In this document: positions 9,173 through 30,687 of the stretch, piece by piece
Numbering within the stretch: the stretch's first letter is position 1
Layout of the letters: each line of letters opens with the position of its first letter
IMG/VR virus record: IMGVR_UViG_3300044450_000032
Coordinates: 1-32,030 of that record
DNA from: a virus
Taxonomy: Duplodnaviria > Caudoviricetes
Length of the DNA stretch: 32,030 nucleotides
Direction: 5' to 3' (one strand)
Made by a program: the position numbers and the translations under genes
The notes under the pieces: generated by a model
What the model was told of the DNA's origin: nothing
Database searches by the model: none
The model's input: the letters and a program-made list of their open reading frames with translations, nothing else

Positions 9173-9191
9173 TGCACATATAGTGTAATTT

Positions 9192-9440: not shown

Positions 9441-9673
9441 TTCTTACATATATCATTCTTCGTTCTTACCTTGGCTGAAAGAGGACAACCACCGCAATCA
9501 TCACAGTATCGTCCTTGTATTTCTGTTAACCTATCATTTATAAACGCGGTTAAAATCCCTTTTTTATTATGTTCGCAAATTGCGCATATTTTAGAGCGTT
9601 GTTCCGCGATCTTTTCTGTTACTTCTGATTTATCAATAAAGTTTTTCCAACCACTTAAAATATCTTTTATCAT
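9419..9673 (-). CDS. Cys-rich putative zinc-binding protein
   Basis: CAIC...CDDCGGCP...C pattern. Confidence 0.65.
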   Translation of the reverse strand: MIKDILSGWKNFIDKSEVTEKIAEQRSKICAICEHNKKGILTAFINDRLTEIQGRYCDDCGGCPLSAKVRTKNDICKKWRNVTK

Positions 9674-9674
9674 T

Positions 9675-12374: not shown

Positions 12375-12387
12375 TTATCATATTTAA

Positions 12388-13704: not shown

Positions 13705-13705
13705 T

Positions 13706-14455
13706 TTATCTTAGTTTAATGCTTATGTAACTTCCTGCGTTTGTAAGTGTTCCGTTTGTAGATAGTTTTATTTGTAATTTTCCAACACCGCCCTGCGTGT
13801 TTGTATCTCCCATGTAAATAGCAAATATCAGTACTCTTTGATAATCTATACCGCTTCCATTATCTAGCCTTTCGCTCCAAAACAATAAAGGATATTCTCC
13901 CGCACCTTGACCAAGTAAATACCTAACTTCAAGTAAAGCGTTGTTAGTAGAAGGGTTTACTTTAAAATCGTTACGTATAATTAACTCACTTCCTAAAGTT
14001 AATTCACTAAAATCTAAATACCCTGTACTTGTATCTAATACATCATTAACATTATCAGGTTTATATAATGAATTACTAAATGCTCCTAAACCATTATTAG
14101 GCACATCAGTCCAAGTGTTTGCAATTAAAGAAATTGGCCCTGTAGTATCGTTATAATCAATAAATCCCGTTTTTAAAGCAGTCGTTTGCCCTGCTGTATT
14201 AAAACCTGTATTTTGATCTATCCAGTTATCAAAGTTAGTTTGATTTGCAAAAGGAGAATCATTTGAATCTACAAAATCAGACCAGTTTAAATTATTATAA
14301 TTTGTATTTTTTCCTTGATACATTATATCATAAGTTTGGTCGTTTTCTAAAGTTTTAACTATTTCAATTTTACTAGCAGCTCTTTTAAATACTGCGGAAT
14401 TATCTATACTCATATAGAAATAATTCCCTTTTATTTCAATTTTAAATGTAGCCAT
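13706..14455 (-). CDS. Putative tail/decoration structural protein
   Basis: Beta-rich 249-aa ORF in the tail module. Confidence 0.55.
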   Translation of the reverse strand: MATFKIEIKGNYFYMSIDNSAVFKRAASKIEIVKTLENDQTYDIMYQGKNTNYNNLNWSDFVDSNDSPFANQTNFDNWIDQNTGFNTAGQTTALKTGFIDYNDTTGPISLIANTWTDVPNNGLGAFSNSLYKPDNVNDVLDTSTGYLDFSELTLGSELIIRNDFKVNPSTNNALLEVRYLLGQGAGEYPLLFWSERLDNGSGIDYQRVLIFAIYMGDTNTQGGVGKLQIKLSTNGTLTNAGSYISIKLR

Positions 14456-14462
14456 TTTTAAA

Positions 14463-14732
14463 TTATATTACTGTTACTGTTATCGTATTTCCGTTCATTT
14501 CCTTACGGGAAAGCTTATCATTAAGTTTCACACTAAAATAATGATTGCCTGTTGTGGTCAATGTGTATTCATTTTCATAACTCGCCGCTACATTATTGAT
14601 CTTAAAAACATAATCACTATTATAGACTCTCTTTTGAAATATCTTAAAAGCAACACCAGAAGAAACAGTAATACTTTGTTTCATGAGTCCAAAATGGATA
14701 AAAGGCGGTTTTTGTATTTCTTCTATAATCAT
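14463..14732 (-). CDS. Hypothetical tail-module protein
   Basis: 89-aa ORF with ATGA overlap. Confidence 0.55.
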   Translation of the reverse strand: MIIEEIQKPPFIHFGLMKQSITVSSGVAFKIFQKRVYNSDYVFKINNVAASYENEYTLTTTGNHYFSVKLNDKLSRKEMNGNTITVTVI

Positions 14733-16846: not shown

Positions 16847-16871
16847 AACCTATTTTATTTCTCATTATCTA

Positions 16872-18014
16872 TTATAATCTTATTGTGTAATCCTCAGGCA
16901 TTGTAAATTCTATAAAAAACTCATAATTCTGCTCTCTTGGATTTTGAACGGTTTCCCTTCCGTTGTTTACTTGAATCTCAATCCAGTTATTAAAACTGTT
17001 TCTTGCAAATTGCGCGCCTGCGAAATAATAAACTTTAGGAGAATCTAAGACACCTTGTAATATATCAATGTCATCTTGTGTTAAATGGTCTGCTAATGCT
17101 CTATGAGAGTCCGCAGAAGTTTTGCCTAATGATCTAAATTGACTAACAGTACTATCTAAGTTTTCAAAATCGTTATTGATCACTCCTATATTTCGAGTGT
17201 TTTTATCAATTTGTTCTTGTTTGTTGAAAAGCCAGTAGTTATAGCCTCCGTATTGATTAAGCCATTTTATATATACGCCGCAATCACTAGAGTGTTTCCA
17301 TAGTTCAACAAACACATTATCAATAAAATCTAGTTTATTGTAACCTGTTGCAAGTGGTAAGTAATCTTCCAAAGTTACGTTTGTATCTCCGTCGCTTATG
17401 AATATTCTGTTAATCCCGTAAGGTGTTGAAATACTGGGGGATGTAACACCGTTAGTAAGATTTGTTATTTGTTGGGGATTTATAATTGTAGGTATATCGC
17501 GACTCAAGCATAAATCAAACGGGTATCCTTCCCAATATCTCATGTGATAAGTATTTGCTGTATCTTTTTTTAATGGAGATAACACAAACATCGAATTCAC
17601 CGAAACGGTTCTACCGCGCTTATATTGTTTCAATTGCTCAGCACCTAGAATAATATAAGGCGTCACGTTTGTAGTTTCTGTAGTATCGTCGGCAAATGTA
17701 ATCGTGAAGGTGAATTGCTGATTTAAGTAAACACGTCCCCAATCAAAAACAAAAGTATTAACATCTGTTTCATCTATTGTTGTTGGGTCTACGGTATCGG
17801 CGTAGTTTCTTAGTAGTGGTGAAATGTACTCTTTTAGATTTCCCCAAAAATCACCATTTGGAAGCGGGTACAATCTAAGGGTTGCTAGGACTCCGATTGT
17901 AATATCGCAGAAAGAAGCCTGCTGTGTGTTGTCACTTGAAAATTCAACTATTCGATTTTCTTCCGAAAATATAAACCTATCTGTTGGTATTGGTGTTGTA
18001 AATGTTATCGCCAT
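16872..18014 (-). CDS. Tail protein (distal-tail-like)
   Basis: YIKWLNQYGGYNYWLF and SPKVY motifs; precedes the hub gene; ATG at 18014 (GTG at 18017). Confidence 0.65.
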   Translation of the reverse strand: MAITFTTPIPTDRFIFSEENRIVEFSSDNTQQASFCDITIGVLATLRLYPLPNGDFWGNLKEYISPLLRNYADTVDPTTIDETDVNTFVFDWGRVYLNQQFTFTITFADDTTETTNVTPYIILGAEQLKQYKRGRTVSVNSMFVLSPLKKDTANTYHMRYWEGYPFDLCLSRDIPTIINPQQITNLTNGVTSPSISTPYGINRIFISDGDTNVTLEDYLPLATGYNKLDFIDNVFVELWKHSSDCGVYIKWLNQYGGYNYWLFNKQEQIDKNTRNIGVINNDFENLDSTVSQFRSLGKTSADSHRALADHLTQDDIDILQGVLDSPKVYYFAGAQFARNSFNNWIEIQVNNGRETVQNPREQNYEFFIEFTMPEDYTIRL

Positions 18015-18053
18015 CACTTATCATTTTATCTTCTTCTTTGGCTCTATGTATAA

Positions 18054-18131
18054 TTATGCTTTTTTCTTCTTGGTGGCTTTAGATTTGCTCTTACTGTCAC
18101 TATCCTTTTTCTTGTATTTTTTCTTTGCCAT
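18054..18131 (-). CDS. Lys-rich micro-protein MAKKKYKKKDSDSKSKSKATKKKKA (possible upstream start at 18158)
   Basis: Manual translation; 13 of 25 residues are Lys. Confidence 0.4.
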   Translation of the reverse strand: MAKKKYKKKDSDSKSKSKATKKKKA

Positions 18132-18249
18132 TGTCAAATAATTTATAGTTTCCTTCATAAAAATATTTCCTTTCTAAATCTAACGAAACCCTCATAACTT
18201 CTATTTCTTTCATTGCTTCAAACATTGGGTTGTATTCATACTTTATCAT
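18100..18249 (-). CDS. Small hypothetical protein (49 aa, MIKYEYNPMFEAMKE...)
   Basis: Manual translation; ATGA overlap with the upstream stop codon. Confidence 0.5.
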   Translation of the reverse strand: MIKYEYNPMFEAMKEIEVMRVSLDLERKYFYEGNYKLFDNGKEKIQEKG

Positions 18250-18710
18250 ACCGCAAAACTTTCTTTAATATTCTCTATAAACAACTCTGAATGAGTTACC
18301 GCTAACTCTGCGCCTACCTTATCAATTATATCTTGTATTCTTTTCGGTGTTACTACATCGCTGATCAAATCAACACCGCCGTAACCTTCTCTATCCCATC
18401 CCTCGCGCTGTATTTTTTTAGCAATTGCAAACGCTAGACTAGTAATAGAAATATTTCTCTCTACTTGCGCGAAAATGTTTTTGTCTTTTATCCATTGTTC
18501 GATTGCGCTTACTGGCGGCATTCCTCCTGCGCCTCTTCCAGTTTCTAATTGTTGCGAGTAATCTAATCCGATCAACTTTACGTTAAAAGGATTGTCTTGA
18601 ACCACTTCCAAAGAATTCGCCCAGTCTCCACTTGCGCGCATTCCTTTCTGATCGTATGCGGCAATCAAATCTTTTTTAATGTTTTCAAATTCTTTTAATA
18701 GTGTATTCAT
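18246..18710 (-). CDS. Tail completion/neck protein (HK97 gp10-like)
   Basis: ASGDWANSL, ETGRGAGGMPP..IEQWIK and AFAIAKKIQREG motifs. Confidence 0.6.
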   Translation of the reverse strand: MNTLLKEFENIKKDLIAAYDQKGMRASGDWANSLEVVQDNPFNVKLIGLDYSQQLETGRGAGGMPPVSAIEQWIKDKNIFAQVERNISITSLAFAIAKKIQREGWDREGYGGVDLISDVVTPKRIQDIIDKVGAELAVTHSELFIENIKESFAV

Positions 18711-18711
18711 G

Positions 18712-18834
18712 TTATACTGTAAGTCTAGTGCCTGAACTTGTTTTTTTACATCTTAATAAACCACGTAGTTTTTTTGGTACATATATTTTTCCTGCCGTTA
18801 ATCTATTTGATAATAAAATAGCTTCTATTTTCAT
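18712..18834 (-). CDS. Small basic hypothetical protein (40 aa)
   Basis: Manual translation MKIEAILLSNRLTAGKIYVPKKLRG...; ATGA overlap. Confidence 0.5.
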   Translation of the reverse strand: MKIEAILLSNRLTAGKIYVPKKLRGLLRCKKTSSGTRLTV

Positions 18835-19001
18835 TTTAATAAATCTTTAATTTTCTGATCTTGCATTTCTTCCTGAATCCTTGCGCATTCAGCGTAATCT
18901 TCTCTTTTCAAAGCTTCGGTTAATTGATCTTCTAAAGATTTAACTTCCTTTCCCATCAATTTAAATGTTATCCTATTTTTGAATGGTCGGTTTTTGCTCA
19001 T
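18831..19001 (-). CDS. UVR (UvrB/UvrC)-motif micro-protein, 56 aa
   Basis: LEDQLTEALKREDYAECARIQEEM matches the UVR coiled-coil consensus (EDYExAAxxRD). Confidence 0.7.
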   Translation of the reverse strand: MSKNRPFKNRITFKLMGKEVKSLEDQLTEALKREDYAECARIQEEMQDQKIKDLLK

Positions 19002-19149
19002 GTTTATTTGATTGTATATGTCTAAATTTTATTTTACCTCCATCAATAATTATAGCAACACCATTACCTTTCTTTATATAGTCGCTTAATTGTTTTTCAA
19101 TATTGTGTAATTCATCATGTTTTATATATGCCCCACTATAATCAATCAT
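18973..19149 (-). CDS. Small hypothetical protein (58 aa, MIDYSGAYIKHDELH...)
   Basis: Manual translation; overlaps both neighbours. Confidence 0.5.
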   Translation of the reverse strand: MIDYSGAYIKHDELHNIEKQLSDYIKKGNGVAIIIDGGKIKFRHIQSNKHEQKPTIQK

Positions 19150-19336
19150 TTTTATCTCTTTTAAAATCCAAATATTCCTGTCTTATAGCTATCAATGTCG
19201 GAGACCACAAAAAGAACCATACAGAAAACTCTAAATACCAACCCTTGATCAATGCATCTATAAACATGATGAATCCAAAAACACATCCTCCACACATTAC
19301 TAAAGCAAAAATCCAAATCAATAAAATCATTTTCAC
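19142..19336 (-). CDS. Small 2-TM membrane protein
   Basis: Hydrophobic 64-aa ORF. Confidence 0.55.
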   Translation of the reverse strand: MKMILLIWIFALVMCGGCVFGFIMFIDALIKGWYLEFSVWFFLWSPTLIAIRQEYLDFKRDKND

Positions 19337-19434
19337 AAGTCCATTTCCTAATAAAGATAGGTGGTATTTGAAGAAATTAGAGTAATCTTATTTTTCAACT
19401 TCGTGTTCTAATATGTTATAGATGAAATCCATTA

Positions 19435-19662
19435 CTATAATAATGTAAAATTACTTTTAAAATATCCCACGCCTATATGATCGCTTTTTAATACTGAACC
19501 ATCTGGGCGCACTACTACTAAATTTCCGTTTTCAACTTCCCGCATGTAATCTTTAGCGGCTACATCTAAGTTGAAATAATCTTTATGCACAAAGAATTTA
19601 TATTCTTCAACGTTTCCGTTTATCAAACAATCTCTGTTTTCTGTCTCTGCTCCGTTATACAT
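19435..19662 (-). CDS. Hypothetical protein
   Basis: 75-aa ORF in operon spacing. Confidence 0.55.
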   Translation of the reverse strand: MYNGAETENRDCLINGNVEEYKFFVHKDYFNLDVAAKDYMREVENGNLVVVRPDGSVLKSDHIGVGYFKSNFTLL

Positions 19663-19665
19663 AAT

Positions 19666-20124
19666 CTAATTTTCAAGAACTCTTATTTTATAATTACAAA
19701 ACAATCCTGTAAAATTCCCATTGAATAGATTGTAAACGTCGATGTTGTCGTGAGTCAATATCTCGTAACCATCACATGCGGCAAATTGTTGTTCCATCGC
19801 TTTAAATATTGGAAGCAATGGCTTTATTTTGGTTTTGTATTTTGAGTCTGTTATTGTTGAATTATTTTCGTTGTAGATGTTACTTGAATAATCATCATGA
19901 TAAGCTAGTACATATCTACCTGTAAATGTTTGATATTTTCTTGATAATCCTGTATCGCCCATTTCAGAGTTTCGTTTCACACTTTCCACAAGTAAATAAA
20001 TTTTATTCGGCGAATCATTATCAACTGCCTGAACTAAATTGTGAACATTCCTTGTGCCGTAGGTATAAAAGAAATCTTGTTCCGCCGCATAACTCTCAAA
20101 TATTTCTACTATATCTGTTGCCAT
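19666..20124 (-). CDS. Putative tail terminator/completion protein
   Basis: 152 aa, alpha/beta composition, near the gp10-like gene. Confidence 0.45.
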   Translation of the reverse strand: MATDIVEIFESYAAEQDFFYTYGTRNVHNLVQAVDNDSPNKIYLLVESVKRNSEMGDTGLSRKYQTFTGRYVLAYHDDYSSNIYNENNSTITDSKYKTKIKPLLPIFKAMEQQFAACDGYEILTHDNIDVYNLFNGNFTGLFCNYKIRVLEN

Positions 20125-20210
20125 TTTATAACTTATTTTCTTTTTGTGTCGAAATTAGGCTACGCTAATATCGGAATAATAATTTTAATAATCGTTTATT
20201 TTCTATGAAA

Positions 20211-20753
20211 TCACTTATTTCCATACTTCAATTTATTAAATTCTTTGTTTGCTCTGTTTAAGCTTTTGTTGTAAGCCATGTAAAATAAAATATCATTGTA
20301 CCTTTGCTTTCCATTCTCAAAGGGTCTACCACCGTATATCTTAGAATATGCATCAATCAAAGATATTGACGAGTAGTTATTTAAAGAATCTCCTACAGCC
20401 GCTTTCCACAGCTCCGAATCCTCATCATACGACTGTAAGAGTTTGATTTCTAGTTGTTTTAAAGATGCGAAAGATTCATATAAAAACCTCTTTGTTTGGA
20501 AGTAATTTACGATCGGAAGTTGCCAAAAAAATATTTCGTCACATTGATACGCCGTGGTGAAAATTTCTTTGATTTCTTCTATTGTTCTTGACTTCGATAG
20601 TAAGCTTTCAATCCTTCGTACATCATTGTAGCTAAGCTTGTTTTGATCAAACGGAAACTTAAAAGCGTCCTTTGCTTTTACAGCTCCTAAAAGCATGTTG
20701 TAAGGAAGTTTGTTCTTTAGTTTTATGTACTTGGCTACAGTTATGTTTTTCAT
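20211..20753 (-). CDS. Hypothetical protein, possible tail assembly chaperone
   Basis: 180 aa directly after TerL; helical. Confidence 0.45.
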   Translation of the reverse strand: MKNITVAKYIKLKNKLPYNMLLGAVKAKDAFKFPFDQNKLSYNDVRRIESLLSKSRTIEEIKEIFTTAYQCDEIFFWQLPIVNYFQTKRFLYESFASLKQLEIKLLQSYDEDSELWKAAVGDSLNNYSSISLIDAYSKIYGGRPFENGKQRYNDILFYMAYNKSLNRANKEFNKLKYGNK

Positions 20754-20755
20754 GT

Positions 20756-21982
20756 TTAAACTCTTATTCTAATACTTGATTTTTTCTTTGGCTTTAAGGT
20801 CTCCATTTCATGATAACGAATCCCGTCTATAGCATGGTTAAAATCATCTATTGGGACGTTTAACTTTTGGTTGGTTCGCTTGTCTTTCTTCCATGTGTAT
20901 TTAGTAAGTTCATTGATAATATTTTTTGATCTACGTGTTACCCAATATTCCTGCTCTTGCATTATCTGAATACCGTAGTTGACGCTATCTTTTCCTTTTG
21001 AAGCGCCAATCGCACGAACTCCATAGTTTTTAATTTCTGCAATACTTTTGGGCTCAGCGCTATCAAAGTAAACAGGAAGTTTGTCAGGTATTTGCTTTGC
21101 TATCTGTTTGTTGCTTAATCCTTTTTGATACACAAGTTCGTCTAATATCCTAACATTGTTATACTTGTAAATATCTGTTATAGCTGTAGGGTCGTTAGTG
21201 TACCCAAAGTCTCCACCTCTCCCGATCTTTCTTGCTGCTTTGGGTACATTGTCAACAATTTTCCAATTATTAAATATTACACCTTCTAGTGACCCGATTA
21301 AACCTAGACCGTAAACACGCCACTTATTTGCCCAGTACGAGTTCTTTATATTGCTATCTTCAAATAGTTCATCAAGCGGTAAGTCAGAATTATAAAAACC
21401 TCTTTGTTTGTAGTCTAGTATAGATTTTATCTCACTTTTACTTAAGTATTCATTATCTAAGTATGTTAAAGTTAAACAGTTGTTTTCTGTTATGTAATCA
21501 TCTCCCCAAAACAAGGAATCAGGATTGTAATCTATTATTGTTAAATCTGCTCTTGATATAAAATGAACCGCTGTATCTATATCCATTTTATCCGCTTCAT
21601 TGATGTATAAAATATCCCTTCTGAATCCTTTCCCTAAATCAGTCACATCTGCACCTAAAAAATCCAAATAACTGCCGTTAAAATATTCGTGCTTGCTTTC
21701 TGATCGATTAAATTCCCTTTCTTTAAGAACTCCCCAGTCCTTTGCTACTTTTTTGTAATCTCTAATTACAGTCCTTTTCATTTTGGAGAGTTCAGAAGAA
21801 AGTATAGATGCTTCTTTTTCAGTTGATAACAAAGATTGTATTATCAATTCTATAATAGATATAGTTTTGGAAGCACCTTGACCGCCACGGATAACAAAAA
21901 CGTCTTCATGCGGATTATTCATAATCAAGTCTTTAATCTTGAAATATGCTTTGGTGTATTTATATTTATTTTCTGTTTCCAA
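20756..21982 (-). CDS. terL: Terminase large subunit (PBSX/Terminase_3 type)
   Basis: Walker A GGQGASKT, Walker B ILYINEA, DYNP, and nuclease motifs DFGYTNDPTA, DSAEPK, NHAIDGIRY. Confidence 0.95.
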   Translation of the reverse strand: METENKYKYTKAYFKIKDLIMNNPHEDVFVIRGGQGASKTISIIELIIQSLLSTEKEASILSSELSKMKRTVIRDYKKVAKDWGVLKEREFNRSESKHEYFNGSYLDFLGADVTDLGKGFRRDILYINEADKMDIDTAVHFISRADLTIIDYNPDSLFWGDDYITENNCLTLTYLDNEYLSKSEIKSILDYKQRGFYNSDLPLDELFEDSNIKNSYWANKWRVYGLGLIGSLEGVIFNNWKIVDNVPKAARKIGRGGDFGYTNDPTAITDIYKYNNVRILDELVYQKGLSNKQIAKQIPDKLPVYFDSAEPKSIAEIKNYGVRAIGASKGKDSVNYGIQIMQEQEYWVTRRSKNIINELTKYTWKKDKRTNQKLNVPIDDFNHAIDGIRYHEMETLKPKKKSSIRIRV

Positions 21983-22442
21983 TATCAGGTAAATTCGGGA
22001 TATTTATTCCACCTTCGTGTTTTACTTCTTTCTTTTCGGTTAGTCCGTTTAGGCGCTGTGTTATGCTTGGGTTGTAAATTCCGCACATTCCCCCCTCTAT
22101 TTGATCTTGTCTTATTTCATTCTTTATACGCGAACAGATACCCCTATATTCTTCATAACGTCCTTCTGTGTTTTCAAAATAATGATGTACATCACTTTCT
22201 GTTTCATAAGCGTAATTATAGAAACCCACCAATGTTAGTGGTTTTTGAGACGGCAACTTAACTATTGAATTTAGAGATTGCTCTATAGTTTCTTTTGATA
22301 CATTAGATAGGTCTTTAGGAAGAATAGTGTTACCACGTTTTTGTTCTACAATGTATATAGGATTGCTTTTTAATTCTTCTCTATAACTACAAAATAGTTG
22401 CCACATCTTATCAGGTGTTTCTATGTACTTTCTTTTACCCAT
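21966..22442 (-). CDS. terS: Terminase small subunit (P22 gp3-like DNA-packaging protein)
   Basis: IETPDKMW..F..Y, KPLTLVGF and QIEGGM.GIYNPSITQRLNGL motifs; overlaps terL. Confidence 0.85.
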   Translation of the reverse strand: MGKRKYIETPDKMWQLFCSYREELKSNPIYIVEQKRGNTILPKDLSNVSKETIEQSLNSIVKLPSQKPLTLVGFYNYAYETESDVHHYFENTEGRYEEYRGICSRIKNEIRQDQIEGGMCGIYNPSITQRLNGLTEKKEVKHEGGINIPNLPDIGNRK

Positions 22443-22446
22443 AACC

Positions 22447-22632
22447 TTAAATTTTATCTCCGTATAAATTATATCCTAGTTTACAAAGCTTGTCAAGATG
22501 ATTGTAGTATATCTGCATTCCTATGACAAAGCTTATTCTTTTTCTTAACCATCATCCAAACTCACATAGTAATTTGTGATACCACCACTTTAGAGGTTTT
22601 TCTTTTGGTTTGTTTGCTTTGCTCCATGCCAT
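22447..22632 (-). pseudogene. 61-codon small gene interrupted by an in-frame TGA at 22552-22554
   Basis: MAWSKANKPKEKPLKWWYHKLLCEFG*WLRKRISFVIGMQIYYNHLDKLCKLGYNLYGDKI fills the gap between its neighbours exactly. Confidence 0.55.
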
Positions 22633-22634
22633 AA

Positions 22635-22826
22635 TCAATCGTTTTTAATTAGTACATGAGCAAAACTTGATAACCCACCATTTCTAAATAACACTGTTAC
22701 AAGAGCATTGTTAGCCACGGTCTTGTTATTAGTCCTCCATGCTTTTTTTATATTTGTTGTCCAAAGCAATTCCTTTGTGATATATTGTATTGGCTCTGAG
22801 CCTGTTTTTACTATGTATTGTGCCAT
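22635..22826 (-). CDS. Hypothetical protein
   Basis: 63-aa ORF, operon spacing. Confidence 0.55.
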   Translation of the reverse strand: MAQYIVKTGSEPIQYITKELLWTTNIKKAWRTNNKTVANNALVTVLFRNGGLSSFAHVLIKND

Positions 22827-22830
22827 AACA

Positions 22831-23121
22831 TTAATTTATTTCTAATTTTTCATTCGTCATCACTTCATAAAGCTCTTTAAATCTTTCCATTGTGTTAAAA
22901 TAGAAATGAGTTTCTGCAAAGTTTTTTTGTTTTATATGCCATCCTGAGTATGATGTTTTAAACTTCTTTCCTTCCTTTAGCGATTCTAAGTAAGAGTTAG
23001 TTCGGTATGTGTTTCTTTTTTCAGGCGCGACTATTAGCTTTAGTCTTTGCAGATTCTTATCTGTTAGATCATCCTGCTTGTCTTTAAAGAACCCTAGTTT
23101 TATAAAATCATCGTACGTCAT
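22831..23121 (-). CDS. Hypothetical protein
   Basis: 96-aa ORF, operon spacing. Confidence 0.6.
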   Translation of the reverse strand: MTYDDFIKLGFFKDKQDDLTDKNLQRLKLIVAPEKRNTYRTNSYLESLKEGKKFKTSYSGWHIKQKNFAETHFYFNTMERFKELYEVMTNEKLEIN

Positions 23122-23125
23122 TCTT

Positions 23126-23308
23126 TCAGTTTTTCTTTATTCTCCATACTCCGACTAACTTGCTTCCAAACCCTACTCCTAGATTGTTTATAAAGCTTTG
23201 TGAAACACTTCTGTTAAGAATATAATTTAGTTCGTGATTAGCTACTACAACTACACAATTATCATTTTTGGAAAAATGGTCGTTTATTATTTTATATCCT
23301 GCTTTCAT
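23126..23308 (-). CDS. Hypothetical protein
   Basis: 60-aa ORF, ATGA overlap. Confidence 0.55.
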   Translation of the reverse strand: MKAGYKIINDHFSKNDNCVVVVANHELNYILNRSVSQSFINNLGVGFGSKLVGVWRIKKN

Positions 23309-23469
23309 TCCTTTACATTATCAATTCCTATTGTAAAACCCAACCAGGACAATCTAACGCTTTCAAATCTCCAGTTCTCATAAAAATGCATGCTTAGTGA
23401 TGGTATGATCTCTATTGATCTCCCAAATACTGTATGTTTTTTATAATCGTTAAAGAGGTATAGTTTCAT
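23305..23469 (-). CDS. Small hypothetical protein (54 aa, MKLYLFNDYKKHTVFGRSIEIIPSLS...)
   Basis: Manual translation; ATGA overlaps at both ends. Confidence 0.6.
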   Translation of the reverse strand: MKLYLFNDYKKHTVFGRSIEIIPSLSMHFYENWRFESVRLSWLGFTIGIDNVKE

Positions 23470-23702
23470 TCTGTCATTGAATTTATAATACCTGGATTCT
23501 GTAATACATAGTCTTTTCCTTCTTGCTCTGCTTTTTCAGCGTCTTTGATTCTCTGTACTATTGCATTTGAAATCATTGCCCCGTTGCTTTCAGGATGATT
23601 CTTTGCGTAATATTCTAATGCCCAAAACATCACATCTTCGGTTCTTTCGTGGTGTCCTTGTTCTATGAGTTCATCTGTTAGTATTTTTGTTGCTGTTGTC
23701 AT
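23466..23702 (-). CDS. Hypothetical protein (likely start MTTATK at 23702)
   Basis: ORF track 23466-23741; the internal ATG avoids overlap with the upstream gene. Confidence 0.6.
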   Translation of the reverse strand: MTTATKILTDELIEQGHHERTEDVMFWALEYYAKNHPESNGAMISNAIVQRIKDAEKAEQEGKDYVLQNPGIINSMTE

Positions 23703-23728
23703 AATCTTATAAATGATCTTTACTTGTT

Positions 23729-24574
23729 TTAATTTTTGCAATATTCATCAAGTTTTAAATCTGCTTTTACAAACTCGTCTTCTTTTGCTTCTGGAAGCTC
23801 AGATATAACAGTCTTCAAAAATGTCAAAGCGTTTTTGTCTCTATTTGCAAAATATTTAATTGACTTTTCTTTAATCCATACATTGTAAAAGTGATCTCTA
23901 AAATCAGCTAGTAATGAATTTGGATATAGCTTTACTTTAGGTATTTTGCGTCCATCTGGATAAGTATGTGTATATGTTGGAAAATCGTTAGGTTCTAAGT
24001 TTTTAACTTTTCTAACCCAATTAGCAAACATTCTTCCTTGCGAAATATCTGGAACTAACTTATCTGGCAATTCGTATCCTTTATCTTCTAAAGGCGCAAT
24101 AAGATTATAAACTATCTCATTAAATATTGAAAAATGCGTTGGTGGTATTTCTGATCTATTTATCAAATATCTTTGTAAATGATAAGGAAGATTGTTTTTA
24201 TTTGGAATCTTTCCTTGCATCCACTCAAAAACCCATTTGGATATTTTTACAGCAAACAAAGGTGATGCCCATTGACCTAAATTAATTGCTACCTGAGGAT
24301 GAACCCAAGTTCCTTGAAATTTAGGTTTTCCACCTCTAATCACCTGTATTAACTCCGTTGCGGGAATTCCCGTTTCGGAATTTAGAGCTCGTAAAAACTC
24401 TTTTGTAGTCGCCAGTCTTGTATAATCATTAAGTTTTTTCCCTGAAACACTACACAATGCTGTTGCGTTAATGTATCCGTCAGTAGCTCGTTGCTCCACT
24501 ACATTCGCGTTTATTTCGCGATCGATTAAAATTAATTCTTGTTGTCTTTCCATATTTTTTACTTGTTTTTTCAT
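23729..24574 (-). CDS. bstA: KilA-N domain fused to a BstA-like C-terminal domain; putative prophage abortive-infection protein
   Basis: KilA-N motifs DGYINAT and QGTWVHPQVA..LGQWASP. C-terminal IPPTHFSIFNEI...VPDISQG...YTHTYPD...LYP...LADFR...KY matches BstA motifs recalled from memory (IP.GYFS.F.EI, VPDISVG, HIYP, IYP..ALG.FR). Alternative start at 24553. Confidence 0.72.
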   Translation of the reverse strand: MKKQVKNMERQQELILIDREINANVVEQRATDGYINATALCSVSGKKLNDYTRLATTKEFLRALNSETGIPATELIQVIRGGKPKFQGTWVHPQVAINLGQWASPLFAVKISKWVFEWMQGKIPNKNNLPYHLQRYLINRSEIPPTHFSIFNEIVYNLIAPLEDKGYELPDKLVPDISQGRMFANWVRKVKNLEPNDFPTYTHTYPDGRKIPKVKLYPNSLLADFRDHFYNVWIKEKSIKYFANRDKNALTFLKTVISELPEAKEDEFVKADLKLDEYCKN

Positions 24575-24576
24575 GG

Positions 24577-24685
24577 AGAGACATTTCTATTTTACTGCTA
24601 TCCTAAGAATTGGATTAGCTTAAAAATAGAAATACCTCTATTAGGGAACTAAATTTTTACACTTAGTTCCTGCTAATAGAGGTAT
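24577..24685 (-). promoter_or_regulatory. Structured 5' leader with two mutually exclusive hairpins
   Basis: HP-A 24632-24685 (13+8 bp). HP-B pairs 24577-24593 with 24623-24639 (17 bp, 2 G-U pairs valid only on the minus-strand RNA). They share 24632-24639. Confidence 0.7.
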
Positions 24686-24688
24686 GCT

Positions 24689-24696
24689 GCAATATA
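24689..24696 (-). promoter_or_regulatory. Putative Bacteroidota -7 promoter element TATATTGC for the BstA-like gene
   Basis: Variant of TAnnTTTG with an upstream TTG; the predicted start site falls at the base of HP-A. Confidence 0.5.
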
Positions 24697-24727
24697 CGAA
24701 ATTATTTTCAATTTTTTACTAATAATT

Positions 24728-24955
24728 CTATCTAATTACACATTCAGGTTCGCTGTTCCAGCAAGCCCCGTAAGGGTTTGTTTTTATATCTACCCTTGGG
24801 TCACAAGTTTCTTCACATGATGTATTGGAAGGTGGTGCTGTGTGACATTGTATCATATCAGTATGATACGGGTCTATGTGGTCGTCATTTCCACCGTGTA
24901 GCTTTGCAATACTTACTTTTTTTAGTTTTAGATTTTTGAGTAATCTTGTTTTCAT
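24728..24955 (-). CDS. Class I lanthipeptide-like RiPP precursor (Bacteroidota-type leader, GG cleavage site)
   Basis: Leader MKTRLLKNLKLKKVSIAKLHGG (LxLKKxxIxxL...GG) followed by a 53-aa core with 5 Cys and 8 Ser/Thr. Confidence 0.7.
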   Translation of the reverse strand: MKTRLLKNLKLKKVSIAKLHGGNDDHIDPYHTDMIQCHTAPPSNTSCEETCDPRVDIKTNPYGACWNSEPECVIR

Positions 24956-25024
24956 TGTTTATTTATTTGTATCGACATTTTAAAAATGGTAGGCTGTCGA
25001 TTTAACCTATTGTTTTACATTTCA

Positions 25025-25858
25025 TTAGAAGTTATAATTTTGAACTTCGTGCGGTAGAAAGTTGTTATCTAATTCAAATAAAAATTCCTCGAATGGATAA
25101 CCTCGCGTGTACTCAGGCGTTACTCTTACTTGATTGTTATCTTTAGTAACAAACGCCACTGTTTCAGCTTTTTTTAGAATAGCACTACCAAGATGCCCTG
25201 TAGGTTTATCGCTTCCGTGGTTTCTGTGTAGTACTGTGCATAAGTGCCCTTGTGACTTTGAAGTCCATTTCATCATGCCTTGTACGATCTTGTTAGATAA
25301 ATCCAAATCATTTACGCTACTTAAAATATCTGCAGCGCCGTCAACTGCAACTAGCCCTATATTATTCCTGTATTCACTTTCCATAAAAAGCCACTCTATA
25401 AACTGAAATCGTATTCTAGGGTCTTCTTCTCTGAGTGAAAAAGGTTTATATAGATCGTAATTTGCGCCGACCATTTCGCAAGACCTTCTTGCAACTCTTT
25501 GTGTATGAAATAGTGATTGCTCTGTATCAACATCTAGGATATATTTATCCTTGGTGTCGTGTCCTTTCATGTTAGGAAAGTAGTTTTGCGCCTGTCCTCC
25601 AATGTATCCAGCTACCAAAGCAGATTTTAAAAAGGTTTTCATTGACTTAGATGCTCCGACTAGGCAAGAAAAATTTCCGTATGTTCCAAATGGTATAGGA
25701 TATGAACGCCCTTTGTACTCATAGCTTCCAATGCTTAACGCTATAGGTTCGCGCTCTATAACTTCATCGAGACTAACTAAACGTTTATCATGGATTTTCT
25801 GAAAGTCAATAAGTAAATCGTTGTCTGCTTTGGTTTTTATTTTTACTTTTTCAATCAT
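25025..25858 (-). CDS. AAA_25/RecA-fold replicative helicase-like ATPase
   Basis: GNFSCLVGASKSMKT (Walker A variant), DTEQ, VAVDG (Walker B), VLH and GHLGS motifs. Confidence 0.8.
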   Translation of the reverse strand: MIEKVKIKTKADNDLLIDFQKIHDKRLVSLDEVIEREPIALSIGSYEYKGRSYPIPFGTYGNFSCLVGASKSMKTFLKSALVAGYIGGQAQNYFPNMKGHDTKDKYILDVDTEQSLFHTQRVARRSCEMVGANYDLYKPFSLREEDPRIRFQFIEWLFMESEYRNNIGLVAVDGAADILSSVNDLDLSNKIVQGMMKWTSKSQGHLCTVLHRNHGSDKPTGHLGSAILKKAETVAFVTKDNNQVRVTPEYTRGYPFEEFLFELDNNFLPHEVQNYNF

Positions 25859-26348
25859 TGAATTTGTTAATTATGTGAGTTATTGAACTAACTAAGAAAT
25901 ACTCTACTGTTTTTTCGTCCCACTCATCTTTTAAAACTTCTACGTAATTTGAGTGTATCGAGTCAACTTCTTTTTTTCGCTGCACATCTGTTTTTAAAAC
26001 AGGGTGTTTCATTTCTACGCCGTTCTTTTTAAGCTTTTCAAAAAATGATTGCTCGTTTAGCTCTTTGGTTAATAGTTGGACGTGTTGAGAAAAAGGGATT
26101 TCCATAGCTTCCAAAATCCAGCGAGTAGCGTTTTTATCAGTAAACTTTACACCTTGAACTTTCACGGTTCTGCGCATCACCTCTACGAATAACCTTGCAA
26201 ACAAATCGTTTTGCTGAACTAAGTTCTTATTTGAATCGTTAATATGATCGATGATTGAATTAATAGCTTCTATATCGTTCTCGTTCGCTTTCCATCTTCC
26301 CTCATTCATTCGCCATTGAATGCGCTGTATTGCCTTGTCTACTTTCAT
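25851..26348 (-). CDS. Hypothetical replication-module protein
   Basis: 165-aa ORF overlapping both neighbours. Confidence 0.6.
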   Translation of the reverse strand: MKVDKAIQRIQWRMNEGRWKANENDIEAINSIIDHINDSNKNLVQQNDLFARLFVEVMRRTVKVQGVKFTDKNATRWILEAMEIPFSQHVQLLTKELNEQSFFEKLKKNGVEMKHPVLKTDVQRKKEVDSIHSNYVEVLKDEWDEKTVEYFLVSSITHIINKFND

Positions 26349-27106
26349 AGTCCTGTTTTTCTTTGGTTTTTATAATCGGTTAGTTTTCCTTGCGCTTCCT
26401 GTACATTCATCCAATTCAGGAAATGTCTTTTGTAATCTGAGAGTTTACTATATGGCTTTTCTTGAAGGATTAAGTGATTGTTGAATAATTCTAGTATTTT
26501 AGAAAGTGAACCTTTGCGTAATTTGTAGTTTAAGTAGAAGGTTTCTCGAAACATAGCGTGTTCGTTATTGGAAATTTCTTTAACAAAACCAACTAAAACA
26601 TCTTTGATGTTGTTTTCTTTACTTTCCTTTACTTTACTTTGTGTACTTTCTTCGTGGTTTACTGTACTTTCTTCGATAGTAAGTGTACTTTCTTCATTGT
26701 TTACTACTTCTTTTGCAGAAATCAAGTCGTAATCAGCACAAACTTTCTTCACGCTTCTATTTGCTTTAGTAGAGACAGATTGCCAAAACTCTTGAATGTT
26801 CTTAGTTGTTAAAATATTCTCACTATTACGCAGTTCTTTATTAAATAGACCCACATTGCAGCAATAATCAACTATTTCATTAACAAGATTCTCTTTTAGG
26901 TTTAAAATGTCGGACACATCAAACGCAGTATCTTCATCCCACGACAAGAAATATCCTTTGTCTCTATAAATTTCTGTTATTAAGTATGAGTAAACTAGAT
27001 AACCTTTAGCACCGAAGACACGCAAAAACTTTCTGATTTTTCTGTTTTGGAAAATATCAGTTTGAATAGTATAGTACTCTAATCCTTGTTTTTTTGGTCT
27101 TGCCAT
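26345..27106 (-). CDS. Phage replication initiator (DUF4373/Lin1244-like N-terminal winged helix)
   Basis: MARPKKQGLEYY..D...KI...FG.KG..VY..L..EIY...GY, GLF, ILT..IQ motifs; repeat-containing linker. Confidence 0.8.
   Translation of the reverse strand: MARPKKQGLEYYTIQTDIFQNRKIRKFLRVFGAKGYLVYSYLITEIYRDKGYFLSWDEDTAFDVSDILNLKENLVNEIVDYCCNVGLFNKELRNSENILTTKNIQEFWQSVSTKANRSVKKVCADYDLISAKEVVNNEESTLTIEESTVNHEESTQSKVKESKENNIKDVLVGFVKEISNNEHAMFRETFYLNYKLRKGSLSKILELFNNHLILQEKPYSKLSDYKRHFLNWMNVQEAQGKLTDYKNQRKTGL
26618..26712. repeat. Iteron-like repeats in the initiator gene (putative phage origin)
   Basis: TGTACTTTCTTC at 26642, 26663 and 26684 (21-bp period), with an adjacent AT-rich CTTTA run. Confidence 0.7.
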
Positions 27107-27122
27107 TAATAGGTTTTTATTG

Positions 27123-27332
27123 TTATGCAGCTTTACGCGGCGTTCTTATTTTGAAGCTTCTATAAGTGATGGGTTTTTGCAACATCACATCTAAGAAATT
27201 AATAGCGCAAACAAACGTTTTTAGCACCCTTTCAATTTCTTTCGCGTCCTTACATTTGTTTTCCTTGGCGCGTAAATATGAATCGTTGATACCTTCTAAG
27301 TGTTCCTGTAGGACTTCTTGGGGAGTTTTCAT
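27123..27332 (-). CDS. Hypothetical protein
   Basis: 69-aa ORF with ATGA overlap. Confidence 0.55.
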   Translation of the reverse strand: MKTPQEVLQEHLEGINDSYLRAKENKCKDAKEIERVLKTFVCAINFLDVMLQKPITYRSFKIRTPRKAA

Positions 27333-27766
27333 ATAGCTACTTTTTCAAGGTTCTTAATTTTAGTTTCTAGCTTTGCGATCTCTTTGGTCATTACCTCCTG
27401 AGAGTATTCACAAAGCGGGTGCAATATTTGATCTTGAATAAGAGCGTCTTTTTTATCCCTGAGTTCTACGAACTTCTTATTTACTAAATCGATTCTTTCC
27501 TCGTCTGTAGTGACTGTATAGGTGATTGTTTTGTTGTTGCTTTTTGTTGAATCTTTAAAGCCTACTTCTTTAATTAGAAAGCATCTCTTTAATTCTGTAA
27601 ATCTTCCACTTATACTAGAATCATCGACATTAAGATACTTAGCTATGTCCTGAGTAGAAGCGACACCGAATATCTTTATAGCTTCGTAAACCTTCCCTCT
27701 TTTTTTTGGTAGGTTTTCGAGTATTGCTAAATATGTAGCGTTTCTGTTTGCGATACTTGTTTCCAT
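27329..27766 (-). CDS. Winged-helix DNA-binding protein
   Basis: STQDIAKYLNV...SISGRFTELK...LI HTH pattern. Confidence 0.7.
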   Translation of the reverse strand: METSIANRNATYLAILENLPKKRGKVYEAIKIFGVASTQDIAKYLNVDDSSISGRFTELKRCFLIKEVGFKDSTKSNNKTITYTVTTDEERIDLVNKKFVELRDKKDALIQDQILHPLCEYSQEVMTKEIAKLETKIKNLEKVAI

Positions 27767-27791
27767 TGTGTTGTTGTTTTATTAATTTTGA

Positions 27792-28196
27792 TTAAAACGG
27801 AAGGTCATTGTCGTCGTCTTTACTTGTTACGGTTTCAGGTTGGTTTACTGTAGTATTACTAGACTTTCTCGTTTTTAAAAATTCAAAGTCATTAACATCT
27901 ATGTTAGCAGATCTTATCTTTTGACCGTCCTTTTCGTAATCGCTGTACGTTAGCTTTCCTGAAACTCTGATTTTATCGCCTTTAGAAACCCATTTTTCAA
28001 TGATTTCCGCAGGTTTGTTTCTGAATACCAAGTTGTGCCACTCAGTAGTTTCTACTTTTTCGCCTGTGTTTTTATTTTTGTAGCTGTCGTTTGTTGCTAA
28101 AGTTATTCGACCTATACAGCCGCCACCTTCAAAGTAATGCATCTGTATTTCGCTACCTGTGTGACCTATGAGGTGTACTTGATTAAGATTTCCCAT
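27792..28196 (-). CDS. ssb: Single-stranded DNA-binding protein
   Basis: LNQVHLIG, LATN, TEWHNLV, KGD motifs and the C-terminal DDDNDLPF tail. Confidence 0.95.
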   Translation of the reverse strand: MGNLNQVHLIGHTGSEIQMHYFEGGGCIGRITLATNDSYKNKNTGEKVETTEWHNLVFRNKPAEIIEKWVSKGDKIRVSGKLTYSDYEKDGQKIRSANIDVNDFEFLKTRKSSNTTVNQPETVTSKDDDNDLPF

Positions 28197-28791
28197 TATT
28201 CAATTCTTTTAATTTATTCCTATAATATTTTCTAATTTCAATTAACGCTTGGCGATTCCATTTAAAATCTGTCCGTTTGTCTTTTTCTGCTAGTTTCACA
28301 AGTAGAGCATAACTCCCTTTTCCGATTCGCTCAGGTAGTCTTAAATGATAAGCAGACTCGTTACCTTCTCTGTAGTTGTTGCATTGTGGGCATTGTCCGT
28401 TTATATTTCGCTCGTCAAATTTTATTGTACTGAATAATTGAGCTTTAAAAAGATGCCCTGCTTCAAATTTATCGTGCCAAGGAGAGCCGCAACTTATACA
28501 AGGTTTTCCCTTATCTCTTTCACGTATGTACTGGTGACAAACTTTTTTAACTGATTCAATAAGAGTTGAAAGACTTTTATTTGACTTGTGATTTTGTGTT
28601 GCTTTCTCTAAATCTCTGCGAGGTTTTGAAGCTTTTAATGTCGCTCTTTGTATTCTAGTTTTCCCTGCTTCTGTATTCAATAAAAAATCTCTGTAGCATC
28701 CGCACTCTATACCTAAACCAAGCTTTCTTTGTGGTTGTTCGGTTCTACAACCTAAGCCGTAAGTTTCTTTATGAGTTCCGATGCATTTCAT
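28183..28791 (-). CDS. ninG: NinG/Rap-like recombination endonuclease
   Basis: YIRERD..KPCISCG, AGH, FDERNINGQC..CN..EGN motifs. Confidence 0.9.
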   Translation of the reverse strand: MKCIGTHKETYGLGCRTEQPQRKLGLGIECGCYRDFLLNTEAGKTRIQRATLKASKPRRDLEKATQNHKSNKSLSTLIESVKKVCHQYIRERDKGKPCISCGSPWHDKFEAGHLFKAQLFSTIKFDERNINGQCPQCNNYREGNESAYHLRLPERIGKGSYALLVKLAEKDKRTDFKWNRQALIEIRKYYRNKLKELNNGKS

Positions 28792-28794
28792 ATT

Positions 28795-29730
28795 CTAACT
28801 AGCGTATTTTTGTAACATTAAAGCGTTTCCGCCGATTCCTTCTAGTACTTCATTCATGTATTGACGTGCAAGTTTCACCATGGCTTTTAATTGCTGGTTT
28901 CGCTTTTCACAGTAATTATGTTTGAAAATTTTTATACGTATTTCTTCGGGAATTTCTCTAAACTTTCCTTCAAACCATTTCAAGTATATTGACGGCGAAT
29001 TGTCACAGTATTGTTTTAGTGCTTTTTCCGTGAATATTAAATTACAGATTGTTTCAACCACTAAATCAACTTTTTCAGGTCGTACGCTTCCGTCACTTCT
29101 AAGAATGCTTTGATTCCAATCTAAACGGCGCAATTCATCGTCTATAAGTTTCTCAGGTGTATCAACTAAGCAGTAGATTAACTCGGAGCGCTTAAGGCTC
29201 CATAAGTCCATATACACGTCTAGTTGCCATTCATAATCCTTATTTGGAATTTCAGTAGCGCGTAATGGAAATGTTTTCCAACTCCACGAAGATTTAATGT
29301 CTCGAATTTTGTAGTGCGCAATATCTGCTTCGCCTGAAAAGAAATCGTTTGTTTTACGCTTCTTGTTTTTGATCACAAGAGCATTCTTATAATTAGAATA
29401 TAGCGTTAGGCTTTTTTCTTCTGCGGCTAATCCTTTTTCGATGTACTTAGAGTTTATTTTTTCGCTTCTACTTGTTAGCTGTTCAAATACTAATCCCTCT
29501 AAAAATATCTTCGCAGTATCTGTAAGTTTTAGTTTTTTGTTATTTCGCTGATCGTACAAACACCCCCATGTAGACAATTGTTTTTCTGTCAATGGTCTTC
29601 CTTCACCTTTTCTTCTTGCGTCGAAATCTTGAAATGTTTTTTCTTGCTTATCAGTTAAAGGCTTTGGAAGTCCTTTCATGATTTTACCAATGGAATGCGC
29701 GCGAAACAAATAGTTGCTGAAATCTTTCAT
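28795..29730 (-). CDS. YqaJ-like/lambda-exonuclease PD-(D/E)xK nuclease
   Basis: KG..EE, SGEADI, DIKSSW and YEWQL..YM motifs; paired with RecT. Confidence 0.8.
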   Translation of the reverse strand: MKDFSNYLFRAHSIGKIMKGLPKPLTDKQEKTFQDFDARRKGEGRPLTEKQLSTWGCLYDQRNNKKLKLTDTAKIFLEGLVFEQLTSRSEKINSKYIEKGLAAEEKSLTLYSNYKNALVIKNKKRKTNDFFSGEADIAHYKIRDIKSSWSWKTFPLRATEIPNKDYEWQLDVYMDLWSLKRSELIYCLVDTPEKLIDDELRRLDWNQSILRSDGSVRPEKVDLVVETICNLIFTEKALKQYCDNSPSIYLKWFEGKFREIPEEIRIKIFKHNYCEKRNQQLKAMVKLARQYMNEVLEGIGGNALMLQKYAS

Positions 29731-29732
29731 AG

Positions 29733-30626
29733 TTATTCGTTTAATGCGTTTTCATGAATGATTTGATTTTCGCGCTCTGTTAGCTCTTTTTCAAACCTTA
29801 CTTTCAATTCATCACTTAGCTTTGTTTTTACTTTATCGAGTTCGTCTATTGTTTTAGCGGCTTCAATAAATTTTAAAATACGTGCAGTTTCTTCCTGCTC
29901 GCTTTCGGCTTCTACATCGATAGTGTTTTGATTGTCGATGTAGTCATATTGCCCTTCTTTAGTTTGCACGCTTTGATCAGCAAGCTGCGCTGTCTCCATT
30001 TGAATGCTCATGATTCCCCATTTAGAAATCATGTTTTTTAAAACAGTTTTCATTGCCATAGCGTCAAATTGGTCTTTATCATTCCAAGGTGAATGAGAAG
30101 AATTAAAAGCCTTAGAATATTTCTTAGCGTGTGCAATAACTTCTTCTTTGCTCCAATACGTCATTTTTTCCATTCCGTTATTAAGCTTGAAATAAGAAGC
30201 ATAACCAACTATTTCACCTGTACCAACTTCATCAAAGTTTGCAATCAATTCTTCTGTTAATCTGTTGAAAGATTTAAATTGATTTTGATAAACCTGTACT
30301 ACATTGATACGCGAGTATTGACCTGTGCGCAATGCTAATTGTACAAAACCTTTATAACCCATTTGAAACTGGGCGTTACCTTTATACGGAACAATCCAGG
30401 CGAATCCTAAATTAGGATTAATAGGTAGGTCTAAGCTTGCCGCCGTTGCCGCTGCATTTAATACCGTTTCAGGTGATGCAGTTTTTAGTAATTTGTTTCC
30501 GTTTACTACTTGTAATACTGAGGAAATAAAACCCTGTGCTTTATCTCCTAAAATCTTTTCAAAACGTTCCTGTATGGATTTTTGAGCGAATAAATTCTTT
30601 GTTGTTAATTGTTGATTTTGACTCAT
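29733..30626 (-). CDS. recT: RecT-family single-strand annealing protein
   Basis: LGFAWIVPY..AQFQMGYKGFVQLALRTGQY and W...FDAMAMKTV motifs. Confidence 0.92.
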   Translation of the reverse strand: MSQNQQLTTKNLFAQKSIQERFEKILGDKAQGFISSVLQVVNGNKLLKTASPETVLNAAATAASLDLPINPNLGFAWIVPYKGNAQFQMGYKGFVQLALRTGQYSRINVVQVYQNQFKSFNRLTEELIANFDEVGTGEIVGYASYFKLNNGMEKMTYWSKEEVIAHAKKYSKAFNSSHSPWNDKDQFDAMAMKTVLKNMISKWGIMSIQMETAQLADQSVQTKEGQYDYIDNQNTIDVEAESEQEETARILKFIEAAKTIDELDKVKTKLSDELKVRFEKELTERENQIIHENALNE

Positions 30627-30642
30627 GATTGATTTTTTAAAA

Positions 30643-30687
30643 GCACACTACAACATTTTTATACCTCTATTAGCTGTTGTAGTGCGC
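30643..30687 (-). promoter_or_regulatory. 13-bp stem-loop upstream of recT whose loop carries the 14-nt bstA-leader antisense
   Basis: GCGCACUACAACA/UGUUGUAGUGUGC stem (G-U pair on the minus strand), 19-nt loop, followed by UUUU. Confidence 0.7.

Follow-up and report, generated by a model that had tools for sequence, protein, structure and literature searches.

Two complementary RNA elements in a putative flavobacterial phage: a candidate RNA switch between the replication and late genes

The stretch of phage DNA considered here (hereafter the window) comprises 32,030 nucleotides, positions 1 to 32,030 of IMG/VR virus record IMGVR_UViG_3300044450_000032, a linear record of a marine phage that is 84% complete and has a GC content of 34%. 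Every long gene of the window lies on the minus strand, in a series that runs from recT through an exonuclease gene, ninG, ssb and replication genes to a BstA-like gene (bstA), and from there to the terminase, head, tail and lysis genes. The subject of this work is a pair of RNA elements on that strand, namely a hairpin upstream of recT and, about 6 kb further on, a structured leader in front of bstA. A preliminary description of the locus proposed that the loop of the hairpin, made after induction, pairs with the leader and switches this defence gene off, thus sparing the phage from its own defence protein. The analysis presented here indicates that the element is conserved and probably is an RNA switch, and that the self-immunity reading is probably wrong in both sign and scope.

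The named phages nearest to the window phage by RecT (69-70% identity) infect Flavobacteriales and two of them possess an integrase, so the window phage is likely a temperate flavobacterial phage. Its repressor or immunity region lies outside the window.

The recT-upstream hairpin and its distant complement

The hairpin (30643..30687, minus strand; fold z -4.69, 0 of 200 shuffles) precedes recT (29733..30626, minus strand; PF03837, E 1e-43; phrog_148), the first gene after it, and consists of a 13-bp stem (30675-30687/30643-30655) that presents a 19-nt loop (30656-30674). A 14-nt sequence in this loop (the 14-mer, 30661-30674, minus strand) is exactly complementary to 24672-24685, the 5' arm of a long leader hairpin termed HP-A, and it begins at the very first base of the loop; both the coordinates of the complementarity and the position within the loop are as the preliminary description had given them. 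It had also counted three copies of the 14-mer, of which two are exact (30661-30674 on the minus strand and 24672-24685 on the plus strand), while the third, which forms the 3' arm of HP-A (24632-24645, minus strand), matches at only 13 of 14 positions. The distance from the end of the 14-mer to the recT ATG is 34 nt.

Complementary 14-mers alone are not rare, as the window holds seven pairs separated by over 150 nt, of which two overlap. The rare feature is the placement, in which the first base of a 19-nt loop is set against the first bases of a 23-bp hairpin. Among the 3.77 Mb of loci fetched during this work there were 468 raw trios of hairpin and complement, 27 of which passed a filter on the loop, and within these 27 a U tract of at least 9 was found in the window and in one related phage, L134, only. 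A further copy of the 14-mer with two mismatches (2120-2133) was rejected as a candidate; it lies within a 47-aa open reading frame (ORF) and is unstructured (z 0.34).

A leader with alternative folds

HP-A (24632..24685, minus strand) is a terminator-like hairpin of 23 bp with a fold z of -8.72, composed of an outer stem (24673-24685/24632-24644), a 2-nt bulge, and an inner stem (24661-24670/24645-24654), and it shows compensatory changes among three phages, the window phage, L134 and a third relative, L316. It is followed by a U-rich tract (24622..24634, minus strand) that is weaker than those of L134 and L316. No terminator-like site on the phage strand is stronger than HP-A in any of the three phages, and it is the sole strong terminator-like hairpin from the replication genes to the far end of the late region. 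Between HP-A and position 1925 there are just four weak terminator-like matches (-8.5 to -9.8 kcal/mol), all within ORFs, and transcription that passed HP-A would therefore cover the terminase genes, the structural genes, and most of the lysis-proximal genes. Since HP-A and its U tract have the appearance of a terminator, transcription would be expected to continue once the 5' arm is captured; the inner stem of 8-10 bp that would then remain stops roughly 10 nt before the U tract.

A candidate promoter box, TATATTGC, occupies 24689..24696 (minus strand) and matches the motif TAnnTTGY (SM5), which in Flavobacterium psychrophilum lies at -12 to -5 (PMC9723704). The predicted start site (24684-24685) is the first or second base of HP-A, and the same holds for L134 and L316. 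No other box of this type occurs on the minus strand within 24690-25060. A scan with a sigma-70 model, which is unsuited to a flavobacterial host, performed at chance level.

Downstream of the U tract, a second helix termed HP-B (24577..24639, minus strand) is predicted to have 9 bp when HP-A is formed and 16-17 bp when the 5' arm of HP-A is captured, and it encloses an inner hairpin with an 8-nt loop. Folded without the 5' arm, HP-B reaches 17 bp (z -4.24) and ends 2 nt before the ATG at 24574, exactly as the preliminary description had it, and the two-state pattern recurs in L316. The 8-nt loop (24604-24611) begins with A and contains UCU in all three phages, and might be the site of a contact with a protein or a tertiary contact. 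A third element that had not been listed previously, HP-C (24543..24583, minus strand), is a helix of 5+6 bp over both candidate start codons of bstA, and folding predicts that it loses its lower 5 bp to HP-B upon capture.

Co-variation of loop and leader in L134

A search with RecT yielded four viral loci, among them L134, which has a RecT 89% identical to that of the window phage and DNA that is 72-78% identical. L134 possesses a recT-upstream hairpin with a different stem and a similar loop, together with the same leader at the end of its contig, and is the sole relative in which both ends of the proposed interaction are present. The check on loop/leader co-variation put forward in the preliminary description came out positive there: the loop core of L134 carries one substitution and one deleted base, and the 5' arm of L134 shows the mirror image of both changes. 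In its 3' arm the base is likewise missing, but a G is kept (as a U.G wobble). Thus the L134 loop has a 12-nt match to the complement of the 5' arm and an unbroken match of only 5 nt to the 3' arm, compared to 14 and 13 in the window. In both phages the match reaches into the bulged bases of HP-A, and this bulge is not constrained by HP-A itself. The stems that present the loops differ in sequence between the two phages, yet both pair. A U tract after the recT-upstream hairpin is absent in L134, and the alternative raised earlier, that the hairpin controls termination before recT, was rejected as its conserved role.

The predicted energies point in the same direction, as the cognate duplexes (-22.3 and -17.0 kcal/mol) are 4-13 kcal/mol stronger than the cross pairs (-9.7 and -13.2 kcal/mol), and the captured state is favoured over the free state by a net -5.8 and -5.1 kcal/mol in an additive estimate. 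RNAcofold predicted no binding of the loop to the fully folded leader.

A leader that is not tied to bstA

A terL search recovered 80 loci, the closest being L316 (85%), which is syntenic with the window through the replication and late genes. No bstA is present in the 22-kb L316 record, but its slot before terS contains a promoter box, a long hairpin (arm at 5685-5697), a U tract, and HP-B, in largely different sequence. The upstream edge of this slot is formed by an AAA-type replication gene (25025..25858, minus strand) that is 86% identical in L134 and syntenic in L316. A blind scan for the box, a hairpin at +1, and a U tract found the leader in the same slot of the window, L134, and L316, and a blind scan upstream of 71 terL loci (337 kb) gave a single match, which was L316, the closest relative; the remaining 9 of the 80 loci, with short upstream DNA, were covered by the RNA model search described below. 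In the leader consensus 12 of 33 pairs are changed on both sides (0 of 500 shuffles; slid controls no more than 4), a statistic drawn from three sequences and a structure derived from them, with the inner stem of L316 misregistered. The differences between arms are G.U wobbles, four per leader.

Conversely, the leader model found no match at any of the 13 other bstA loci (a handful of distinct sequences), and HP-A was missing from the 11 of these that were folded; among those with neighbours listed, three sit after lysis genes. As L316 has the leader without bstA and 13 bstA loci lack the leader, the leader is not a bstA leader. The idea of an RNA switch thus survives in so far as the loop complements the first bases of a two-state leader, but not in its sign (OFF) or its link to bstA, and the self-immunity role assigned to it does not fit this distribution.

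Wider searches added little. An exact scan for the 14-mer in 14 of 64 parts of the viral contigs returned at least 119 stretches, and the 80 listed each had a single match, which was read as chance. The HP-A arm pattern returned at least 120 loci (34 of 64 parts) and the combined promoter and arm pattern 34 loci; in both cases only L206, on a contig shared with L134, was real. Leader BLAST against phages and plasmids gave short chance matches only, and no gate with a loop partner was found in 11 more distant whole records (G003-G008, L277, Arctus_1, GDF21, 11b, Harreka_1). A metagenome RecT scan produced seven loci, none closer than 76%; two were folded and showed no pair, one had too short an upstream region, and four were duplicates or distant. 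The GTDB scan with BstA gave a single unusable match of 19 aa, which places host genomes outside all of these searches.

The BstA-like gene and its start codon

The gene (23729..24553, minus strand) encodes a protein of 274 aa when read from the ATG at 24553. The protein matches phrog_6287 over residues 8-254 (E 1e-63), PF04383 (E 1e-24), and the PADLOC BstA model over residues 103-242 (E 1e-22), and aligns with BstA of phage BTP1 at 31.7% identity over residues 133-245 only. Its KilA-N domain and BstA C-terminal domain identify it, by sequence, as a member of the BstA family, in agreement with the preliminary description.

The start codon is likely the ATG at 24553 rather than that at 24574, which had been assumed previously, because the called protein (P0001) has 274 aa and close homologues begin at the matching residue. 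The choice matters for the predicted behaviour of the leader. The opening energy of ATG 24553 falls from 9.6 kcal/mol in the free state to 2.7 kcal/mol in the captured state (with four different 3' ends, from 7.5-9.6 to 2.7-3.1 kcal/mol at 37 C and similar at 20 C), whereas ATG 24574 is predicted to be closed in both (16.9 vs 15.2 kcal/mol). The claim that the loop switches bstA off therefore lacks support at two levels, given the terminator-like nature of HP-A and the predicted opening of ATG 24553 on capture, and in these models the transcriptional and translational layers agree on a default OFF state that turns ON with the loop.

A 12-nt direct repeat flanks the gene, with one copy just before bstA (24558..24569, minus strand) and the other at its stop codon (23719..23730, minus strand); among pairs of gene-upstream regions taken as controls, 0 of 820 had 12 nt in common. 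This suggests that the repeats may be an insertion scar and that bstA was inserted behind an older gate. Contigs of the sequencing runs X6 and X8 carry an L134-type loop, and a 24-kb contig of X8 joins 23309 to 25043 and contains no piece 80% alike to bstA, a weak hint given that the intervening letters were not seen and the short side measures 22 nt. No terminator-like site was found after the bstA stop codon.

A proposed RNA-opened late gate

On balance we slightly favour a model in which an early RNA captures the nascent 5' arm of HP-A, blocks termination, and so opens the late operon, acting as a stand-in for a Q protein in the manner of synthetic small transcription activating RNAs (STARs), with bstA as a later insertion. 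A promoter that is likely constitutive would initiate at the first base of HP-A, and transcription would end some 55-60 bases later, at HP-A and its U tract. In the lytic phase, and only then, the loop would be produced as part of the recT transcript, from a promoter off the contig and behind a terminator-like hairpin at about 31210-31242. By capturing the leader's free 5' end as it emerges, the loop would keep HP-A from closing, and the polymerase would continue. In the resulting longer RNA the 3' arm, now unpaired, would form HP-B with downstream sequence, stripping the lower stem of HP-C and, in the window phage, opening the bstA start at 24553, so that bstA would be made in the lytic phase and not in the lysogen. 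The operon that we infer to be gated (149..23702, minus strand) comprises small ORFs, terS (21966-22442), terL (20756-21982), and the head, tail, holin and endolysin genes, all assigned by PHROG/Pfam. More tentatively, and with somewhat less than even confidence, a clade of Flavobacteriaceae phages may use a natural transcription-activating RNA loop in place of Q, with codes specific to each phage, and the gate may have captured a bstA that phages with a matching loop can arm.

No member of the Q, ArpU, or RinA families was matched above cut-off in this record, itself 84% complete and with several small ORFs lacking an assignment (48 proteins with PHROGs, 28 with Pfam, and 11 with NCBIfam), and an Atlas search with a 165-aa protein gave no usable match. 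As to why bstA should be the first late gene, one may guess at a role in timing, the exclusion of co-infecting phages, or arming by the RNA of a matching phage.

A number of observations weigh against this model. As the loop is not predicted to bind the folded leader, capture would have to be co-transcriptional, within about 45-50 nt, and the HP-A target lacks a linear toehold of the STAR kind. The free 5' end of the target could thread a closed loop, and this may be a reason for its placement at +1. The promoter assignment is imperfect, with an upstream TTG 12 nt from the box in the window and imperfect boxes in L134 and L316; the usual spacing between TTG and box is 19-21. The window U tract is interrupted and those of L134 and L316 are clean, and folding of the L134 and L316 leaders clearly prefers this strand, whereas that of the window leader shows no preference at all (-53.7 vs -53.6). 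The window yielded no promoter from which the loop RNA could be made, with no SM5-type box on the minus strand above 30680. The co-variation of loop and arm amounts to one independent comparison in two phages, with no family-wide signal, and the small basis of the leader statistic has been noted above. The pair is absent in 18 of 19 recT loci (L267-L269, near copies of L266, being left out of this set) and in both of the folded metagenome recT loci, all of these at no more than 73% identity, and a search of 2.27 Mb with the leader RNA model found no fourth member, which indicates a narrow clade. The L134 contig ends before the gene downstream of the leader, and the recT side of the L316 locus lies off its contig. 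Finally, an inhibitor of replication made late is hard to explain unless the phage itself is immune.

Alternative explanations

The most credible alternative, although we consider it unlikely, is that the pairing is real but acts post-transcriptionally or in the reverse direction, by tuning translation of the first cistron, by a late 5' arm that damps the early operon, or in cis on a 6-kb read-through transcript. HP-B is conserved yet can form only past the termination point, and HP-C provides a predicted switch at ATG 24553; activation by refolding has a precedent in IsrK (PMC4825925). The cis version gains from loop and leader being on one strand with the leader's own hairpin as the sole strong terminator-like site between them. 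However, a target at the predicted +1 and a U tract after HP-A in three phages fit a co-transcriptional decision, HP-C was not seen in the L316 fold, and 34 nt separate the 14-mer from the recT ATG.

It is improbable that the repeats are instead DNA sites, either an operator or an element like aba, bound by a protein of the phage, for instance the winged-helix protein encoded at 27329..27766 (minus strand; sub-cut-off HTH matches and winged-helix look-alikes in the Atlas search), with the hairpins as by-products or opened by a protein antiterminator. Repressors often bind at +1 to +14, and the winged-helix gene is found in both the window and L134; moreover, aba is DNA-based and overlaps the bstA start (PMC8585504). 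It acts in cis, as the preliminary description stated, but also in trans from a high-copy plasmid (PMC8585504). Against this, the motif is not palindromic, the pairing extends beyond the 14-mer into unrelated stems, the arm differences are G.U wobbles, and L316 retains the structure with a different sequence. The copies also lie 80-130 nt from the bstA start, with one 6 kb away, and so fall outside the span of about 63 bp across the start codon, bounded by direct repeats, that an element of the aba type would occupy, although aba elements are cognate to their own phage's bstA and cannot be recognised from sequence.

Slightly less probable still is that the copy in the loop was left behind by a short duplication or by gene conversion, and that HP-A is an ordinary attenuator or terminator that is opened in some other way. 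The pair is known from two phages only, the phage encodes a RecT annealase, and the seven 14-mer complements in the window show what chance can produce; yet the mirrored changes in L134 follow the 5' arm and not the 3' arm, which has the same orientation as the loop, and the stem was rebuilt while the loop was kept. The weakest candidate is the earlier model of a bstA expressed in the lysogen and turned off by the loop RNA through HP-B at induction, which has in its favour the position of the gene directly behind the leader, the end of HP-B 2 nt before ATG 24574, and the need of BstA prophages for self-immunity (PMC8585504), but which we consider very improbable given that capture is predicted to open ATG 24553 and to leave ATG 24574 as closed as in the free state, that leader and bstA occur independently of each other, and that a constitutive transcript, with no terminator-like site after bstA, would enter terS and terL.

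Comparison with known systems

In lambdoid phages an always-on late promoter (pR') is followed by a promoter-proximal terminator (tR') that is opened by Q, a product of the early operon (PMC7547250). The predicted gate resembles this arrangement in its position between the replication and late genes and in its presumed opening by an early product, and differs in that the window has no detected Q-family protein, the opener would be an RNA loop, and the predicted promoter is of the flavobacterial type. Synthetic STARs act in trans, binding a nascent terminator hairpin at its 5' half and so activating transcription (PMC5648800, PMC9980294); they are engineered RNAs that contact a linear stretch in front of the hairpin as well (PMC5648800). 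The window loop likewise complements the 5' half of a terminator-like hairpin, at 14 of 14 bases here and 12 of 12 in L134, but its target begins right at the predicted +1, the triggering loop belongs to an mRNA leader, and downstream of the target hairpin lies a second helix, HP-B.

The CI RNA of phage P4, like the C4 RNA, presents antisense sequence in loops, represses, and maintains lysogeny. C4 of phages P1 and P7 is similar to the element described here in that a phage RNA displays a complement in its loops and acts in trans on a distant phage transcript with a specificity of a few bases (PMC5320573). It differs in that C4 represses and maintains lysogeny (PMC5320573) whereas the sign predicted here is ON, and searches of the window, L134 and L316 against Rfam returned no C4 match (E <= 1). 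IsrK of the Gifsy-1 prophage shares a leader with a terminator and alternative folds, activation by a trans RNA, and a link to late control, but there the short form acts on its own long form, in translation, and through the protein AntQ (PMC4825925). The BTP1 BstA-aba system involves the same protein family, with KilA-N and BstA C-terminal domains; its bstA follows cI, is expressed constitutively and ends in a terminator of its own, with immunity conferred by a 63-bp DNA element (PMC8585504). The window gene, on the other hand, lies between the AAA gene and terS, and thus between the replication and terminase genes, behind a hairpin gate rather than a repressor gene.

In T-box leaders, read-through of a terminator depends on uncharged tRNA. 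The conAn element combines a cis RNA with protein in antitermination (PMC8191782). Both resemble the predicted gate as natural cases of RNA-dependent read-through, and the window leader differs in having no Rfam match. The literature searched, which was thin on subscription papers, yielded no natural RNA that opens a late terminator of a phage by base pairing.

The control of late genes in Bacteroidota phages is poorly described. If the model is correct, the element would be a natural counterpart of STARs and a protein-free timer of the early-to-late transition built from two RNAs of less than 150 nt each, its two nearly orthogonal loop-arm pairs could serve as parts for flavobacterial genetics, and a BstA gene would be in use outside the setting of lysogen defence. 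If the pairing only tunes translation, it would be a variant of antisense control, still one that involves an RNA family absent from Rfam.

Other features of the region

The early intergenic region at 31000-31380 (minus strand) is structured (z -2.57) with several hairpins, including the terminator-like one at about 31210-31242 and another near 31030-31060, and may contain early control elements. A hairpin just before recT also occurs at about 5730-5770 of the more distant L135 (RecT 73%), with no complementary partner in the locus or in the gate scan. Upstream of recT in L134 (1191-1338) there is a tRNA-like element with a long central insert, which scores 32 bits with the Rfam tRNA model and was missed by ARAGORN.

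Ahead of the window leader, an ORF of 75 aa (24728-24955, minus strand) has a Lys/Leu-rich leader, a GG motif, and a Cys-rich tail, and we take it to resemble a lanthipeptide-type precursor of a ribosomally synthesized and post-translationally modified peptide (RiPP). It has no Pfam, NCBIfam, PHROG or PADLOC match, and the window encodes no modifying enzyme. In L134 its slot is occupied by a different gene of 180 aa, which precedes the leader and is itself directly preceded by a DUF805b RNA (7249-7284) that is above the Rfam gathering score.

Directly before terS, at about 22446-22632 (minus strand), a reading frame that by eye has an in-frame TGA in its middle is possibly a decayed small gene. 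Further downstream, about 230 nt of the window (18018-18246) are near-identical to L316 (about 10345-10575), with two differences by eye between phages that are otherwise about 75% alike, and this shared stretch contains a short Lys-rich ORF and a promoter-like motif.

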